Shown one piece after another: positions 1 through 6,596 of a stretch of 6,611 nt of DNA. Position 1 is the first letter of the stretch, and each line of letters opens with the position of its first letter. Made by a program: the position numbers and the translations under genes. Source of the DNA: a virus; UHGV virus genome UHGV-0371891; one strand, 5' to 3'. The notes under the pieces are model-generated. The model was not told the origin of the DNA. It saw only the letters and a list, made by a program, of their open reading frames with translations, and did no database searches.

Positions 1-299
1 TAATTCATGCTTGGAATACCCACACATGTACTTGCACTCGGAAGCCCGGCGAACTTCCTGTGCGTGGTGACCTTGCATATACTCCCGCCCAAATGTATGA
101 AGCTGCTAAAGCTGGTGTACCTATTTCTGCTCAGAACATTTCTCAACTCCCCTCGGATGATTTTACTGACGAGGAGTCTTGGATTGTCCCCGTTGAATAT
201 CGTAGAGGCCAGGATATTGCTGATATTTGGAATGCTCAACGTGATGCTCGCGCTAAGATTGTAGCCGCCTACAATGAAAAGCGTAAACAGCTAGAATAA
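1..299 (+). CDS. 3' part of a roughly 104-aa hypothetical protein that wraps around the window end. It continues in frame from the ATG at 6599. An in-window alternative start is the GTG at 60.
   Basis: The frame is open from position 3 with no stop. The residue g at 6611 plus ta at 1-2 forms the codon gta, which continues MKQV into VIHAWN... The stop TAA at 297-299 overlaps the VP2 ATG (TAATG). The gene sits between VP1 and VP2 and has the same T-rich wobble bias as the core genes. Confidence 0.5.
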   Translation, partial: IHAWNTHTCTCTRKPGELPVRGDLAYTPAQMYEAAKAGVPISAQNISQLPSDDFTDEESWIVPVEYRRGQDIADIWNAQRDARAKIVAAYNEKRKQLE

Positions 300-1420
300 T
301 GGGAAAATTTTTTACAGGTGCTGGTAGTGCTCTGATTGGCGGAGCACTTTCCGGCATCTCTAATTTATTTGGTGCACATTCTCAGAATCAATCTGTTGAA
401 AAACAGCTCGCGGCGGCACGTGAAGAAGCTGAGAAAACCCGTAAATGGCAGACCTCTGAACGTGAGGCTCAAAATGATTGGAATTTTAAACTTTGGCAGG
501 CTAATAATGATTACAACACTCCTGCTGCTGTTCAGGCTCGTTTAAAAGCTGCTGGCATCAATCCCGATTTGTATGCTACTAACGGTGCCTTACAAGGTTC
601 ATCTATTCAGGCACAAGGTGGTCATACTCCATCTGGCCCTGTTGCTGATACTTCTGCTTGGAACCGTTACAGACCTATTGGAAGTATTGCCTCGCAGGCT
701 CTTGCTGATACTGCCTTGTCTGCTCAAGCAGCTAAAACCTCTGCTGAAACAGAAGGTCAAAAACACACGAATGACATTCTCTCTTCTGATGCTTCATTTC
801 GTGATGCTTTCAATCAGGGACAACTCGACACTATGGAAAGTACTATCCTTGTTAACGGTAGTAAGATCAAACTTAATGATGCGCAGGCCTCGCAAGCTCG
901 TAGTATGGTTGAACAGATCAATGCCTCTATTAAGAAGATGTCTTCTGAAATCGATCTTTTGATTTCTCAGGCAGCTGATGTTGATGACCGTATTTGGGAA
1001 CGTCATGTTCGTGTTGCTTTAGATTCGTTTATTGAGCATGGCAAGCTTAAGATATCTCAAGGACAGCTTGAAATTTCTCAGGAGCAGCTTAAGGCAGCTC
1101 TTCGTGAACTCGGAGTTAAACTACCTCTTATGACATCTGAAAAGAAACGGAATGAAGCCTTATCCTCATTCTACCAGGATTTAGGTTTCAAGGTGAATGC
1201 AGAAGAAGATCGTCTTCGTTTTGACTTAATGCAAGACATGAATTGGGATGATTTTGAGCGTACTATGCAGCAAATTCATGTTATTCTTAATGATGCTGCG
1301 GCATTCGTTCCTTTCGCAAATCCTCGTCGTCCTAGTAATTCAGGTAAGCCACGTGAAAGACATGAGACCAAAAGTGCTGATGGACAATCTAAACATGTTT
1401 ATTATGATTATTATGATTAA
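299..1420 (+). CDS. VP2: Minor capsid / DNA pilot protein (VP2-like)
   Basis: A 373-aa ORF directly downstream of the capsid gene. Its N-terminus is Gly-rich (GAGSALIGGALSGISNLFGA), followed by long Ala/Gln/Glu-rich helical or coiled-coil segments. It has strong T-ending codon bias like VP1/VP4 and a TAATG start-stop overlap with the upstream gene. The assignment rests on synteny and composition, not on a recognisable catalytic motif. Confidence 0.65.
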   Translation: MGKFFTGAGSALIGGALSGISNLFGAHSQNQSVEKQLAAAREEAEKTRKWQTSEREAQNDWNFKLWQANNDYNTPAAVQARLKAAGINPDLYATNGALQGSSIQAQGGHTPSGPVADTSAWNRYRPIGSIASQALADTALSAQAAKTSAETEGQKHTNDILSSDASFRDAFNQGQLDTMESTILVNGSKIKLNDAQASQARSMVEQINASIKKMSSEIDLLISQAADVDDRIWERHVRVALDSFIEHGKLKISQGQLEISQEQLKAALRELGVKLPLMTSEKKRNEALSSFYQDLGFKVNAEEDRLRFDLMQDMNWDDFERTMQQIHVILNDAAAFVPFANPRRPSNSGKPRERHETKSADGQSKHVYYDYYD

Positions 1421-1511: not shown

Positions 1512-1793
1512 ATGGACATTCTTTTACAGTATTTAAACATTAGGAAACAAAAACAAGAGTATGTGAAGGTAGTAGATCTACCCTGTAGTACAGTTTACCA
1601 AGCCTTGGAATTGGAGATGGCTGATAGAGCTATATCTTTTGTGGATTATATGCAACAAACATATCGATCTACATATCTTTTTGCAGGCATCATTGACGCG
1701 GAGTACTGTAATCGCACTGCTCGTGCGGTATTCTCTTACACTGACTTTTGTCAGTTAACTTGTGGACTGGGTGAAACATCCAGCATTGACTAA
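1512..1793 (+). CDS. Hypothetical 93-aa protein. Its coding status is uncertain.
   Basis: An ORF with an A/T-rich start context similar to the other genes. Its codon usage differs from the core genes: it uses aga/agg/cga/cta/gta where VP1/VP2/VP4 prefer cgt/ctt/gtt. It ends in the TAA that forms part of the ori-like motif. Confidence 0.3.
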   Translation: MDILLQYLNIRKQKQEYVKVVDLPCSTVYQALELEMADRAISFVDYMQQTYRSTYLFAGIIDAEYCNRTARAVFSYTDFCQLTCGLGETSSID

Positions 1794-1810
1794 CTTGATA
1801 TATGTAGCAC
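1792..1810 (+). promoter_or_regulatory. phiX174 origin-like sequence AACTTGATATATGTAGCAC (compare phiX ori cAACTTG|ATATTAATAACAC). Candidate Rep nick site between G1797 and A1798.
   Basis: Nine consecutive identities (ACTTGATAT) and about 15/19 overall to the phiX174 (+) origin core as I recall it. Flanked upstream by a second TAACTTG copy (1756-1762) and by the hairpin 1740-1755 (aCTGAC tttt GTCAGt). Confidence 0.45.
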
Positions 1811-1850
1811 AACTGACACATTGTTCAGCTTGTGTGAAAGATTTGAATGA

Positions 1851-1867
1851 GGAGCGCCTTGCGCTCC
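1851..1867. repeat. Hairpin GGAGCGC-ctt-GCGCTCC (7-bp stem, 3-nt loop)
   Basis: Perfect reverse-complement arms. It shares the GAGCGC core with the repeats at 2155-2170 and 2240-2247. Confidence 0.7.
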
Positions 1868-2034
1868 CTCGCTCAATCAGGCTACAGCCTTACGAACTTC
1901 CCAAGTTCGGTTTGCGTTCTTATCCATTCTGTCCCTTCCTCTATCGCAAACATCAAAACATATTTTTCCTTTTTTCTTTCGAGACGTGCAATAAAACAAT
2001 GCGTAGGGAAAAATAGCGTTTGGCGTTCTGTAGT

Positions 2035-2074
2035 AAACTATGTTAAACCAAGCGTAGCGACTTTAACATAGTTT
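2035..2074. repeat. Perfect 13-bp inverted repeat AAACTATGTTAAA / TTTAACATAGTTT separated by a 14-nt spacer (stem-loop or cruciform)
   Basis: Read directly: 2035-2047 is the reverse complement of 2062-2074. It lies in a non-coding region between VP2 and VP4. Confidence 0.8.
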
Positions 2075-2110
2075 GGTACAGGTTGATAAACGATATTTTT
2101 AACTACACTT

Positions 2111-2118
2111 TATCTTTG
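2111..2118 (+). promoter_or_regulatory. TATCTTTG box matching the Bacteroides -7 promoter consensus TAnnTTTG. A second identical box sits at 1458-1465.
   Basis: An exact 8-mer occurs twice, both times in intergenic DNA upstream of + strand genes. The -33 TTTG partner is poor (GTTG at 2082-2085), so the call is weak. Confidence 0.3.
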
Positions 2119-2150
2119 CACATCTTGAGAGATAAAAGGAAATTATGAAA

Positions 2151-2300
2151 TCGTGAGCGCGGGAGCGCGAACACCTCTCTGTCATCTTGGATGACGCCTC
2201 TGTATACACAGCGTAACGAAGTGAAGCGCGTCAGGGATAGGAGCGAGTATCGGCGAAGCCGATTTGTTTGAGCGGATAGCCCGCCCGGACGCCCAAATTA
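2151..2300. other. GC-rich structured island. About 57% GC by my count, against roughly 32-42% in sampled coding stretches. It contains the tandem GAGCGCG-gg-GAGCGCG (2155-2170), GGAGCGAG (2240-2247), and the hairpins GTCATC-ttg-GATGAC (2181-2195) and ATCGGC-gaa-GCCGAT (2249-2263).
   Basis: Counted by hand over 2151-2300. Repeats and stems read directly. It lies immediately upstream of the VP4 start. Confidence 0.6.
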
Positions 2301-2313
2301 AAAATAAAAAACT

Positions 2314-3711
2314 ATGGCAAATATTCTTTGTGAAAAACCAAAATATATTTTGAATCCTGCTTTTAAGGATGCACTTTTGCAAACTGGAAAATATGTTTAC
2401 AACGGAGATGCAACTTTTGTACCAGAAATGCGACTTGCTGCATGGCGTTGGAACTTTCCGTATGCCCTGTTTACGCCGAAAAATATTGACTTTCAAAACA
2501 CTATCTCTTGGGAAGATAGTTTTTATGCCATTGACCGCGATGGTGATGTTGTACCTATGTTTTTGGCAATTCCGTGTCGCAAATGTGCTCTTTGTCGAAA
2601 GAGAAATGCTCGTGAATGGATGTTTCGCGCAGTCGCTGAATCGCAATCATCCCGTTCTGTTCCCTATTTTATCACTCTTACTTACAATCCCATACACCGT
2701 CCTACAGATGGTGTAGACAAAAAACATGTACAAGATTTTCTTAAACGTTTGCGTCAAATTCTTGTTAGAGACCATGGTTATGATGAGAAAATTCGGTATT
2801 TTGCCGCTGCTGAGTATGGCAGTCATACGAAGTTGCCTCATTATCATCTTATTTTGTGGAATATGCCTATTCACATGTCTTCTATGGATGTGTATCAGGT
2901 TGTTCATCAGGCTTGGTCTGTTCGAGAACGAGTTTATAACAAACTTACTCATCGCTTTGATTGGAATTATATAGGTGAATTTGGATTTGTCTATTGCAAA
3001 CCTTGCACCCAAGGTGGTATCCAGTATTGTATGAAATACATGCGTAAAGAGAGTGATATTCCTAAAGGTTGTAAACCAACTTTTTACCTGTCATCCCGCC
3101 GTGGCGGCGGTCTTGGTTATAAATGGTGTCTCGACCACATTATGTGGTTCTATCAGAATCCTGACGTTTTGACTATTGAAATTGTTGACAAATTTACAGG
3201 TGAGCGTTTTACGTCGTATATCCCTGCATATTTTCGTCGGAAACTTTATCCAACCCCATCTCTACTTGTTCGCAAAGAAATACGTGATACTATTCAGTTG
3301 GTAGACTATTTTTTATCACTACGTGCGTGTCTTTGGCAGATACATCTTCACATGCCTGATAAAGAAGTTAATGTTACTCGTAAACATCTTCATGAGAAGT
3401 TCCCTTTTTACGATTTTGATACTTGTGTGCAACGTTTCCCCCGCTTTATTTTTAGTAATGCGAAGCATTTTTATGCTACTTATGAGGAAGATTCTCTCAT
3501 TGTTATGGAACATATCCTCGAGCCTCTTCTGGCTATGCTTGAAACTTACGAATTCGATCTTAAGTATTACAAAATGATGACTGCGGCCAAGCGTGAACAT
3601 CACGAGTTTGTGAGTGAACACATGTTAACGCAACCTGAGGTTGATATAACGTATGTTAAATATAAGACAGATAACGAGAATATTCTTGCTATTTACAAAG
3701 AAACTTTATAA
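2314..3711 (+). CDS. VP4: Rolling-circle replication initiator protein (Microviridae VP4 / gene A-like, HUH endonuclease superfamily)
   Basis: Zinc-finger-like CRKCALCRK (nt 2575-2601). RCR motif 1 FITLTY (2668-2685). Motif 2 HYHLILW (2839-2859). Motif 3 with paired tyrosines YCMKYMRK (about 3025-3048), comparable to YVAKYVNK of phiX174 A protein. 465 aa. Confidence 0.9.
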   Translation: MANILCEKPKYILNPAFKDALLQTGKYVYNGDATFVPEMRLAAWRWNFPYALFTPKNIDFQNTISWEDSFYAIDRDGDVVPMFLAIPCRKCALCRKRNAREWMFRAVAESQSSRSVPYFITLTYNPIHRPTDGVDKKHVQDFLKRLRQILVRDHGYDEKIRYFAAAEYGSHTKLPHYHLILWNMPIHMSSMDVYQVVHQAWSVRERVYNKLTHRFDWNYIGEFGFVYCKPCTQGGIQYCMKYMRKESDIPKGCKPTFYLSSRRGGGLGYKWCLDHIMWFYQNPDVLTIEIVDKFTGERFTSYIPAYFRRKLYPTPSLLVRKEIRDTIQLVDYFLSLRACLWQIHLHMPDKEVNVTRKHLHEKFPFYDFDTCVQRFPRFIFSNAKHFYATYEEDSLIVMEHILEPLLAMLETYEFDLKYYKMMTAAKREHHEFVSEHMLTQPEVDITYVKYKTDNENILAIYKETL

Positions 3712-4325: not shown

Positions 4326-6596
4326 ATGGCAAATATATTTCGTAAAAAAGACGCTTACATCGATCGTGTTAATCGTTCGACGTTTGATTTGTCGTTTGTA
4401 AACAACCTTACGATGAAATTTGGTGCTATCACTCCCGTGTGTTTACTTCCGGCGTCATTTGGCGATTCTTTTCAGATAAACGCTCGTTTTAACCTGCAGC
4501 TGCTTCCGACCGTGTTTCCGATACAGACTCAACTGTATGTGCGATTACACTTTGTTTATGTTCGTACTCGTACCCTTTGGGAAGACTGGATGGAATTCTT
4601 TGGTGGTGATGAAACTGTTACACCTCCCTGGCTAGATGTTCTTGCTGATGGTTCTACTCCTGAGCGTAAAAAACAGTTTAATATCCCTGATGATTTGCAA
4701 ACAGGTTCTCTTGCTGATTATCTTGGTGTGCCTACAACTATTACCGGAACTTATGGTGGTTCTGTTATTGCTGCACGTTCTGTTGATTTGTTCACTTTTA
4801 AGGATAATGTGCCTGCTTTGAAAGCTCCTTTGGTTGGTTCTCCGGTTGTAGCCGGTGTTTCTTTTACTACTTTGGATACCATTTTTGAGTCTTCTGCTAA
4901 GTTTAATGAAGTTTTTGTATCAAATTTTGCAAATAAAGGCTCTTATGGTTATGCTGCACCTCGTTGTATAGGCATTCCTTTTAATGTTCATTATGATACG
5001 CCTACACAAAATGTTACTTTACAAGTCCCGTTAACTCGGTTTAGTCTTCTACGTCAAATGATTTCTGACTTTGATGATAATCCGATTGTTGGTTTTATTG
5101 TTTATGAAAACGATAATTCTCCTAAGCTTTGGTATTCTCAATTTAATATTTCTAATATAGAAGATGATACTCTCACCTTTAATATAGATTTTGGTAAACC
5201 TCTCTCTTCTTTTAAGTTGTGCATGCTTTTTGAGTTTCGTAATGAACTCTATCAGAAGGATTACATGTACTCTTTGTATGAGGCTGGTTCTGCAACAACT
5301 ATTCGTGCAGGTCTTACACAAGAGTTCGTTTCTCAACTTTATAGTTCTCCTATTTCTGTTGTTTATGCGTCTTCTGAGTGGACAAAACCCGTTGCAGCCA
5401 ATTGTCCTTTTTATGTTGCTGCAGCTAATCAGCTTCCTCCTATTCCTTTATCTGCCTTGCCGTTTCGTGCGTATGAGGCATATTACAATGCTTTTGGTCG
5501 TGACATTCGTAATAACCCGTTTATTGTGAATGGTAAACCGGAATATAATAAGTATGTGCCATCTACAAAAGGCGGTTCTGATTCTTATAAGTATCAGTTG
5601 CGTTATGCTAACTGGGAACCTGATGCTTACACCACTGCCTTACAATCTCCACAGGCTGGTGTCGCTCCTCTTGTTGGTATTACTTCTCTTGGTGAAGCTA
5701 CCTTCCGTGATGCTACTGGAACTGAATATCATGCACAGCTTGAGACTGCTGAAGATGGTGATACTGTTACAGGTTTTCAAGTGAAATCTTCTAATGCTCC
5801 TGCTGATGTTGTCCGGAACCTTATTGGCATGGCTACTTCTGGTATTTCTATTTCTGATTTTCGGAATGTTAACTCACTTCAACGGTTCCTTGAAATTCGA
5901 ATTCGTCAATCTCCGCGTTATAAGAACCTTGTAAAGGGTCTCTTTGATGTTAATTTGGATTATGACGAGCTTATGATGCCGGAATTTCTCGGTGGTATTT
6001 CCGATACTATTCCTGTGTATAAGGTAACTCAGACTACACCTACCGAAGGTAATCCTCTTGGTAGTTTTGCTGGTCAAGGCTCCTTGCAATCCGGTATGCG
6101 CCACGTTATCCGTAAGTATTGCCCGGAAGATGGTTATATTCTCGGTGTTATGTCTGTTGTACCTGCTGCTAATTATTCGCAGTTGTTGGCGCCTCATTTT
6201 ACACGTATGAACCTTTTGGATTGGCATTTTCCGCAGTTTAACAATATAAGCTATCAGCCTATGTTGTACAAACATTTATGCCCTTATCAGGCTTATGCTG
6301 CGAATCCTCAGAATATTAACAATGTATTTGGTTATCAACGTGCATATTGGGATTTAATTTCTTCATTTGATGAAGTACACGGTGAATTTCGCGGTTCTAT
6401 GAGAAACTTTCTTATTAATCGTGTGTTCGATAAGGCTCCTGAACTCTCTAAAGATTTCCTGCTTGTTAATCCAGACCATGTTAATGATGTGTTTGCTATG
6501 ACTGCCGAAAATGGTGATAAGATTTTAGGTAGTATTGCTTTTGACATCACTAAGAAAACTACTATACCTCGTAACTCAATACCTCATATTGAATGA
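4326..6596 (+). CDS. VP1: Major capsid protein (Microviridae F / VP1 family)
   Basis: The N-terminus STFDLSFVNNLTMKFGAITPVCLLPASFGDSFQINARFNLQLLP...LYVRLHFVYVRTRTLWEDWMEFFGGD runs parallel to phiX174 F (HDLSH..G.L..I....VIAGDSFEMD..LRLSPL...FTFYVPHRHVYGEQWIKFMKDG). 756 aa, consistent with the enlarged VP1 of Bacteroidetes-associated microviruses. Confidence 0.92.
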   Translation: MANIFRKKDAYIDRVNRSTFDLSFVNNLTMKFGAITPVCLLPASFGDSFQINARFNLQLLPTVFPIQTQLYVRLHFVYVRTRTLWEDWMEFFGGDETVTPPWLDVLADGSTPERKKQFNIPDDLQTGSLADYLGVPTTITGTYGGSVIAARSVDLFTFKDNVPALKAPLVGSPVVAGVSFTTLDTIFESSAKFNEVFVSNFANKGSYGYAAPRCIGIPFNVHYDTPTQNVTLQVPLTRFSLLRQMISDFDDNPIVGFIVYENDNSPKLWYSQFNISNIEDDTLTFNIDFGKPLSSFKLCMLFEFRNELYQKDYMYSLYEAGSATTIRAGLTQEFVSQLYSSPISVVYASSEWTKPVAANCPFYVAAANQLPPIPLSALPFRAYEAYYNAFGRDIRNNPFIVNGKPEYNKYVPSTKGGSDSYKYQLRYANWEPDAYTTALQSPQAGVAPLVGITSLGEATFRDATGTEYHAQLETAEDGDTVTGFQVKSSNAPADVVRNLIGMATSGISISDFRNVNSLQRFLEIRIRQSPRYKNLVKGLFDVNLDYDELMMPEFLGGISDTIPVYKVTQTTPTEGNPLGSFAGQGSLQSGMRHVIRKYCPEDGYILGVMSVVPAANYSQLLAPHFTRMNLLDWHFPQFNNISYQPMLYKHLCPYQAYAANPQNINNVFGYQRAYWDLISSFDEVHGEFRGSMRNFLINRVFDKAPELSKDFLLVNPDHVNDVFAMTAENGDKILGSIAFDITKKTTIPRNSIPHIE

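Follow-up and report, generated by a model that had tools for sequence, protein, structure and literature searches.

To our knowledge, replication of any single-stranded DNA phage begins with priming on the packaged strand, and in the Microviridae that strand is the + (sense) strand. Complementary-strand synthesis starts in phiX174 at the primosome assembly site, a PriA/n' hairpin within the F-G spacer, and in G4 at a primase origin. At the minus-strand origin of M13/f1, a hairpin in the single-stranded DNA (ssDNA) rebuilds a promoter from which the host RNA polymerase makes a primer RNA. The Frpo element of the F plasmid is a hairpin promoter on ssDNA that also primes DNA synthesis (PMC11541004). 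The ssoA origins of rolling-circle plasmids are ~160-nt hairpins primed by RNA polymerase (PMC5703833), and their conserved loop hexamer, CS-6, reads TAGCGA (PMC6395029). In other microvirus clades, conserved hairpins with invariant loops and compensatory stems lie upstream of rep and were proposed to be minus-strand origins by analogy with the primosome hairpin of phiX174 (PMC9865509). Our own literature search on Alpavirinae non-coding structure gave nothing relevant.

Here we describe a large hairpin upstream of rep in UHGV-0371891, an Alpavirinae-like microvirus of the human gut. The window, as we call the whole stretch analysed, is its complete circular genome of 6,611 nt (a 6,730-nt source contig minus a 119-nt k-mer overlap). 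The hairpin is new; conserved hairpins acting as complementary-strand origins are an already known kind. Its closest counterparts include the hairpins of the reekeekee- and roodoodoo-microviruses (PMC9865509), which come from the same virus family, occupy the same position relative to rep, also combine an invariant loop with stems that vary with compensation, and have a proposed priming role. Those hairpins measure 13-64 nt, against ~180 nt here; moreover, the present one has a promoter box of host type in one of its arms, and its clade is a gut Alpavirinae-like one.

Like the priming hairpins of phiX174 and G4, the new hairpin lies on the virion strand, in the largest spacer and apart from the Rep nick site, but those are much shorter and share no sequence similarity with it, and the E. 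coli accessory proteins of these systems may not exist in the host of this phage. In M13/f1 and Frpo, an imperfect ssDNA hairpin rebuilds a duplex promoter with sigma-70 -35 and -10 boxes; in the present hairpin the stem contains a -7 box with a predicted bulge of 3 nt, and this Bacteroidetes box is the only one recognisable, with no -33. The ssoA elements are orientation-specific imperfect palindromes of ~160 nt with CS-6 (TAGCGA/T) in the terminal loop, and the loop here contains TAGCGA. However, ssoA, a host-restricted element, is known from Gram-positive plasmids, and chance may explain the hexamer match. The ssoA RSB element (TTTATGCCGAGAAAA-like) is not matched in the hairpin even with three mismatches allowed; the window has just two such matches, both inside rep. 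The hairpin is therefore not an ssoA member.

A large hairpin upstream of rep

The phage genes are on the + strand throughout (Table 1). The largest non-coding region is the 520-nt spacer 1794-2313, and it holds, between the nick site and rep, a palindrome that a first-pass annotation of the bare sequence had described as a perfect 13-bp inverted repeat in non-coding DNA. Both parts of that description are borne out. The repeat is exact and is the longest perfect one in the window at spacers of up to 30 nt; in 100 first-order Markov shuffles the longest repeat was 12 bp, seen once. As for coding, gene callers predict no gene at this place, and relatives have the overlapping ORF (1847-2071) in shortened or altered form or lack it. 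Since this ORF is not conserved, the region is non-coding and a protein-coding explanation is out.

The palindrome is the apex of a longer inverted repeat with 55 nt per arm, and the imperfect hairpin as a whole spans ~180 nt. Folded as ssDNA it has a minimum free energy (MFE) of -39.5 kcal/mol (z = -7.75), a stability equalled in 0 of 200 shuffles, and folded as RNA -73.9 kcal/mol (z = -10.9); it is retained in both the MFE and the centroid structure of the full spacer. A known RNA family or tRNA was set aside because Rfam gave only sub-threshold, microRNA-precursor-like noise, which reflects the length of the hairpin. An invertible promoter is likewise out, the inverted loop occurring in 0 of 106 copies.

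Table 1. Features of the window and, in the last two rows, of the prophage contig L137
Feature	Position	Strand	Remarks
Pilot-like ORF	299-1420	+	373 aa
Probable viral-strand origin (Rep nick site), TAACTTG/ATATATGTAGCACAACTGACAC	1791-1820	+	neighbour of the large hairpin, outside it
Spacer hairpin	1807-1835		adjoins nick site
Spacer hairpin	1851-1867		
Small conserved hairpin CGAACTTCCCAAGTTCG, then T-rich run	1893-1909	+	terminator-like; upstream of the large hairpin
Whole imperfect hairpin, ~180 nt	1965-2142	+	~68 pairs, 5 G·T wobbles, several 1-3-nt bulges or mismatches
Second TAGCGT motif, within TAGCGTTTG	2014-2019	+	5' arm; near -7 box, one extra base; nearly invariant in alignment A4
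5' arm of perfect 13-bp apical stem, AAACTATGTTAAA	2035-2047	+	
14-nt terminal loop, CCAAGCGTAGCGAC	2048-2061	+	contains TAGCGA
3' arm of perfect 13-bp apical stem, TTTAACATAGTTT	2062-2074	+	
TATCTTTG, match to Bacteroidetes sigma-ABfr -7 box TAnnTTTG	2111-2118	+	3' arm; pattern match, probable promoter
Spacer hairpin	2157-2168		
Spacer hairpin	2180-2196		
Hairpin ATCGGCGAAGCCGAT, GCGAAGC core	2249-2263	+	rep leader, downstream of the large hairpin
Rep	2314-3711	+	PF23343
Capsid F/VP1	4326-6596	+	Pfam Phage_F
Canonical 28-bp dif-like site (L137)	5357-5384		
Canonical 28-bp dif-like site (L137)	11735-11762		

Conservation and covariation

Relatives were taken from IMG/VR (24, with Rep 79-97% identical) and from 47 further metagenome contigs, nearly all of human-gut origin. 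Alignment A1 contains 25 sequences recovered through Rep. Alignment A4 contains 51 distinct sequences, and those added to A1 were retrieved with the 25-mer of columns 154-178, a block that is invariant in the 25 Rep-recovered sequences. Across these relatives the hairpin region is 92-99.5% identical, and it forms the most conserved 200 nt of the genome, with a sliding-window identity of 0.95-0.98 vs ~0.70-0.90 in genes.

Pairing is conserved as well as sequence. In the 51 distinct sequences 98.7% of the hairpin pair cells are paired, against 39-48% when the partners are slid by 1-3 columns, although these relatives are closely related and cell counts are not counts of independent events. Seven pairs show compensatory double changes, and the observed covariation score was reached in 0 of 500 shuffles; conservation of the stem with compensation, which the first-pass annotation had suggested as a check, is thus found. 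The hairpin is a real feature and is strongly selected.

Its parts behave differently. The 13-bp apical stem (5' arm in A4 columns 86-98) has no unpaired cell in any of the 51 sequences, with compensatory double changes at three pairs and G·T-only changes at six. Here CT...AG alternates with TG...CA: CT became TG in 14 of the 51 sequences, and each time the partner AG became CA. At columns 91/120, one sequence has G·T in place of the A-T pair and two have G-C, so that a mutational pathway from A-T through G·T to G-C is seen. The loop core AAGCGTAGCG is invariant in 106 of 106 copies, only loop positions 1, 2 and 13 being variable. The lower half of the stem (~100 nt) is almost totally invariant too, and because it never varies its pairing is read from complementarity alone. 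The hairpin is absent from clades whose Rep is at most 52% identical; if it is the priming site, those clades must prime differently or elsewhere.

One relative is recorded from outside the gut. It is a free 6,689-nt genome (L040, the same as L036), a separate contig in the assembly of a soil isolate, Chitinophaga silvisoli K20C18050901 contig41; its Rep is 79% identical and the hairpin is present. This contig is either a host lead or contamination.

The strand that folds

One-sided changes in A4 produce a + strand G·T at 15 pairs, and an A·C at two pairs at most. Counted as polymorphisms, A>G to T>C is 16:2 in the hairpin vs 588:1058 elsewhere on the genome (Fisher p = 5e-6), so the background mutation bias runs opposite to the hairpin pattern. 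Selection purges changes that break pairing on the + strand. Because G·T is tolerated and A·C is purged, the pairing is selected on the + strand and not in duplex DNA, and the same asymmetry rules out the minus strand. Virion ssDNA and mRNA are both of + sense and both fit the asymmetry; we infer that the folding molecule is the ssDNA rather than the mRNA.

A promoter box in the 3' arm

The 3' arm contains a match to the consensus -7 box of Bacteroidetes promoters, TAnnTTTG (PMC7366714). In the folded strand, TCT of this box (2113-2115) is predicted to be bulged, and a C·A mismatch (1985/2122) falls at the expected start. A -33 TTTG at the canonical spacing of 19-21 nt from TATCTTTG is absent, the nearest TTTG being 35 nt away. 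A clade whose Rep is 40% identical has the CTATCTTTGCA box too, at the head of a homologous leader of ~75 nt and in front of a different gene, and by virtue of this sharing TATCTTTG at 2111-2118 is probably a real promoter.

The leader itself (GCGTCAGGGAT..GAGTATCG..GTTTGAGC..AGCCCGC..GGACGCCCAAAT) lies behind the CTATCTTTGCA box at 2222-2296 in the window and at ~1075-1165 in two other sequences, L079 and L068. It is ~80% identical between the window, where it is upstream of rep, and the clade with 40% Rep identity, where it is upstream of a different small gene; Rfam has no match for it. A second TATCTTTG box of the -7 type is found at 1458-1465, in the spacer before ORF 1512-1793, an ORF not called by gene callers. 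It sits within a weak inverted repeat, 1448-1524, that we considered and dropped since it is not significantly stable (z = -1.6).

The hairpin also carries both copies of TAGCGW present in the window, each on the + strand. One is the TAGCGA of the loop (2055-2060), whose TAGCG is invariant in 106 copies. In this clade the + strand TAGCG is concentrated in the non-coding region, which holds both copies of the window and all five of another member (L001, 1671-1876). Moreover, GCGTAGCGA recurs in a hairpin loop of the homologous leader of the distant clade (L079, 1100-1110).

Other hairpins of the spacer

Conserved hairpins with compensatory changes follow one another along the whole spacer, and Alifold finds 17 pairs with double-sided changes in it. 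The terminator-like hairpin upstream of the large one has a compensatory change at columns 144/152 of alignment A5 and is also present in Dulem virus 258. The hairpin in the rep leader has compensatory changes at A5 columns 499/509 and 500/508. Its GCGAAGC core is a motif known to form an unusually stable DNA mini-hairpin, and the window has one copy (2253-2259), in a neighbour of the large hairpin. The only copy in phiX174 (2358-2364) lies in the F-G spacer, the one that holds the complementary-strand priming site. Dulem virus 258 has one GCGAAGC upstream of rep.

A candidate complementary-strand origin

We propose, as the best-supported reading, that the hairpin is a complementary-strand (minus-strand) origin, with a probability of about 0.5, because its size, its position, its strand specificity, the behaviour of loop and stem and the promoter box fit that kind of element. 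An ssDNA stem-loop for priming was among the suggestions of the first-pass annotation; a conserved + strand hairpin is what we observe, and priming is the function that we infer for it. The palindrome would be the nucleating tip of the ~180-nt hairpin in the single-stranded viral (+) DNA. The hairpin would then form a double-stranded island in ssDNA coated by SSB, where host enzymes could lay the first primer, and from this primer the incoming genome would be converted to the replicative form.

How the primer would be made is suggested by the comparison with the M13 minus origin, Frpo and ssoA: most likely, the host RNA polymerase would recognise a promoter reconstituted by the hairpin. This could work in two geometries. 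Either TATCTTTG in the 3' arm would direct RNA synthesis on the 5'-arm template, out of the base of the hairpin and into the pyrimidine-rich stretch 1920-1985, or synthesis would proceed from the 5' arm towards the loop and stop at TAGCGA, as in ssoA. The apical stem would need pairing only and would therefore covary, and the loop core and the lower stem would be read as sequence and would therefore be invariant.

A bolder version, which we hold to be distinctly unlikely, is that one promoter serves two templates, as a hairpin duplex promoter on ssDNA and as the rep promoter on dsDNA. On the incoming ssDNA, the -7 box with its pre-melted TCT bulge would be presented as a duplex, and RNA polymerase with sigma-ABfr would transcribe the 5' arm and the pyrimidine-rich tract, giving a purine-rich RNA that primes the minus strand. 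After conversion to dsDNA, the same promoter would make rep mRNA. If true, it would be the first description of an ssDNA promoter for a Bacteroidetes RNA polymerase and for a microvirus.

Several observations argue against a complementary-strand origin. The -33 TTTG and the RSB element of ssoA are missing, the hairpin itself is missing from clades with Rep identity of at most 52%, and other small conserved hairpins of the spacer, for example that with GCGAAGC, could do the priming instead. Also, mRNA has the sense of the virion strand, so a role in RNA fits the same covariation and the same tolerance of G·U. The main rival is an RNA-level element in a read-through polycistronic mRNA that controls rep (an RNase III site, a stabiliser or an attenuator). 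All genes being on the + strand, a read-through RNA would include the hairpin; the RNA fold is very stable, tolerance of G·U with exclusion of A·C is a classic RNA signature, and covarying hairpins fill the spacer as a chain, some of their loops being GNRA-like. However, the terminator-like hairpin precedes the large one, and the predicted start of the rep transcript (~2122) is inside the 3' arm, so that the main rep transcript cannot form the hairpin; together, the two suggest that most transcripts would lack the full structure. Furthermore, no Rfam family rises above noise, and the near-total invariance of ~100 nt of lower stem exceeds what a stability element needs. We therefore regard an RNA element as unlikely.

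A site in duplex DNA, either an operator for a dimeric regulator or a cruciform, could also control the rep promoter ~40 nt downstream. The palindrome is perfect and just upstream of the -7 box, and symmetric changes in half-sites would preserve it as well. Duplex recognition does not predict one-sided changes that are asymmetric between strands (p = 5e-6), though, and the complementarity spans 180 nt, well past the size of an operator. In addition, no DNA-binding domain was found in any ORF of the phage, and a 14-nt spacer disfavours cruciform extrusion. All this makes a duplex site very improbable.

If the hairpin is indeed the complementary-strand origin, it would provide, in a widespread gut clade, a precise and mutable candidate signal for the first replication step of non-enterobacterial microviruses, which are among the most abundant phages of the human gut. 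Together with the nick motif described below, it would give the first map of both origins in an Alpavirinae-like genome, useful for the construction of Bacteroidales replicons or phagemids.

The probable viral-strand origin

Stem-loops with an invariant loop upstream of rep are the usual layout of CRESS-virus origins and of many plasmid origins, and the hairpin has this layout, just upstream of rep. Thus, it could be the viral-strand origin, with the Rep nick site in the loop (one sense of the term ori hairpin in the first-pass annotation), or a packaging signal, which that annotation also named. The nick motif is found elsewhere, 240 nt upstream. The segment 1791-1820 reads TAACTTG/ATAT...AACTGACAC, and ten bases of it, AACTTGATAT, are identical to the phiX174 origin core; the nick core AACTTG/ATAT is at 1792-1801, and the annotated rep_origin of phiX174 (4306) aligns with A1798. 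This motif occurs once in every relative and is kept in the clades with 35-52% Rep identity that lack the hairpin, and it is the probable viral-strand origin. The hairpin, by contrast, does not contain this motif, and its loop is unlike it. Packaging in microviruses is, as far as we know from phiX174, coupled to Rep-driven synthesis, and we know of no pac hairpin. A nick site in the loop is out, and we consider a viral-strand origin or packaging role of the hairpin extremely unlikely.

The nick segment overlaps the stop codon of ORF 1512-1793. An exact 18-mer probe from the conserved origin block retrieved only two contigs, because one base of it varies.

The dif resemblance and the search for integrated copies

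The first-pass annotation had also named the palindrome a candidate attP of the dif/Xer type. In this reading, host XerC/D would recombine there, on the duplex or the folded strand, to integrate the phage; we give it almost no credence. The idea has precedents: dif-like att sites of the BMV prophages lie in the spacer upstream of rep, as the palindrome does, and an attP in folded ssDNA is known from the CTX phage (PMC3091885 and as cited therein). Krupovic and Forterre have put forward the Xer model for such prophages (PMC3091885). What the palindrome shares with the attP sites of Xer-exploiting elements (CTX phage, BMV and the prophage contig L137 described below) is one XerD-arm-like stretch of 9 bp. 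The stretch, TATGTTAAA, indeed agrees in 9 of 11 bases with the XerD arm TTATGTTAAAT, which many predicted Bacteroidetes dif sites share, so the resemblance that the annotation noted exists. It is not significant alone, with a chance expectation of 0.12 per window for the 9-mer, gut Bacteroides have a different XerD arm in their predicted dif sites, and the orientation is reversed: both XerD-like arms turn their outer ends (TTAAA) to the loop and their inner ends (TATG) away from it, back to back compared with dif. Of the 11-6-11 architecture, the XerC arm and the junction evidence that mark sites used by Xer, the palindrome has none. At the palindrome we found neither a XerC arm nor a central region of 6-8 bp, in agreement with the remark of the annotation that the 14-nt spacer is too long for one.

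We also scored the window with a weight matrix (PWM) built from 14 of the predicted Bacteroidetes dif sites in the supplement of Kono et al. 2011. No 28-bp dif-like site was found in the window: the maximum is 6.0, within the range of the shuffle maxima (7.3 +/- 2.6 on average), while real dif sites reach 20-38, and the top hits do not include the palindrome. Moreover, the inner arm bases that are critical in dif change (CT to TG) with compensation in the opposite arm. We reject dif/attP for four reasons: the architecture of the palindrome, the PWM score, the covariation, and the lack of prophages in the collections searched. This result is a caution against calling Xer/dif sites from a half-site match.

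The best PWM hit, 5586-5613, falls in the VP1 coding sequence, where some relatives reach 12-13 at this position (TATAAGTATCAATTACATTATGCTAATT); being within the shuffle range, it is probably due to chance. A third TATGTTAAA occurs in rep at 3652-3660, where it encodes the conserved peptide TYVKYK and has no dif-like context. The 10-mer ATAAAACAAT, common to the hairpin and the att core of L137, was discarded as not significant after allowing for ten possible 10-mers.

Integrated copies were sought as well, with attention to junctions at the palindrome. None of this clade was found in 185,579 species genomes, a scan in which only the free 6,689-nt contig was returned and in which, with one genome per species, absence is not proof. 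None was present among the 47 metagenome contigs, exact-protein look-ups returned only ~6.7-kb contigs plus one fragment of 1.6 kb, and Rep homologues of at least 73% identity occurred only on contigs of up to 8.8 kb. Contigs of 8-12 kb were rejected as prophages, for they are concatemers or strain chimeras of the circle.

Four contigs join the phage to foreign DNA, all inside rep (window positions 2321, 2652, 2811 and 2587/3415) and none at the palindrome, although the way in which they were found biases junctions towards rep. The hairpin is intact in these chimeric contigs wherever it is present. On the contigs themselves, the junctions are at ~4005 (L027), ~3053 (L097), ~1038 (L136) and 10514-11342 (L135), and the foreign DNA includes holin genes like those of Firmicutes phages, an ORF for a DGR-type reverse transcriptase, AraC/MFS genes and an rnf operon. 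All four are probably assembly chimeras or dead fragments.

A genuine prophage of this type served as positive control. It is Alpavirinae-like, with Rep 33% identical, and lies in a 42-kb bacterial contig (L137). Its flanks are the two dif-like sites of Table 1, TTGTTTTATAA-TCGGTA-TTATGTTTAAT and TTGTTTTATAA-TCGGTA-GTCTGTTTAAT, which have the XerC arm and the central region in common, with a 19-bp direct repeat. The PWM ranks the first of these top, with a score of 17.4. These junctions support the Xer model of Krupovic and Forterre for such prophages and illustrate the kind of site that the window lacks. The att site of L137 is downstream of rep, not upstream.

Elsewhere in the window, the capsid gene is hypervariable at ~4750-5400, where only 4-5 of 24 relatives align at the DNA level, a block consistent with the variable surface insertion of VP1.
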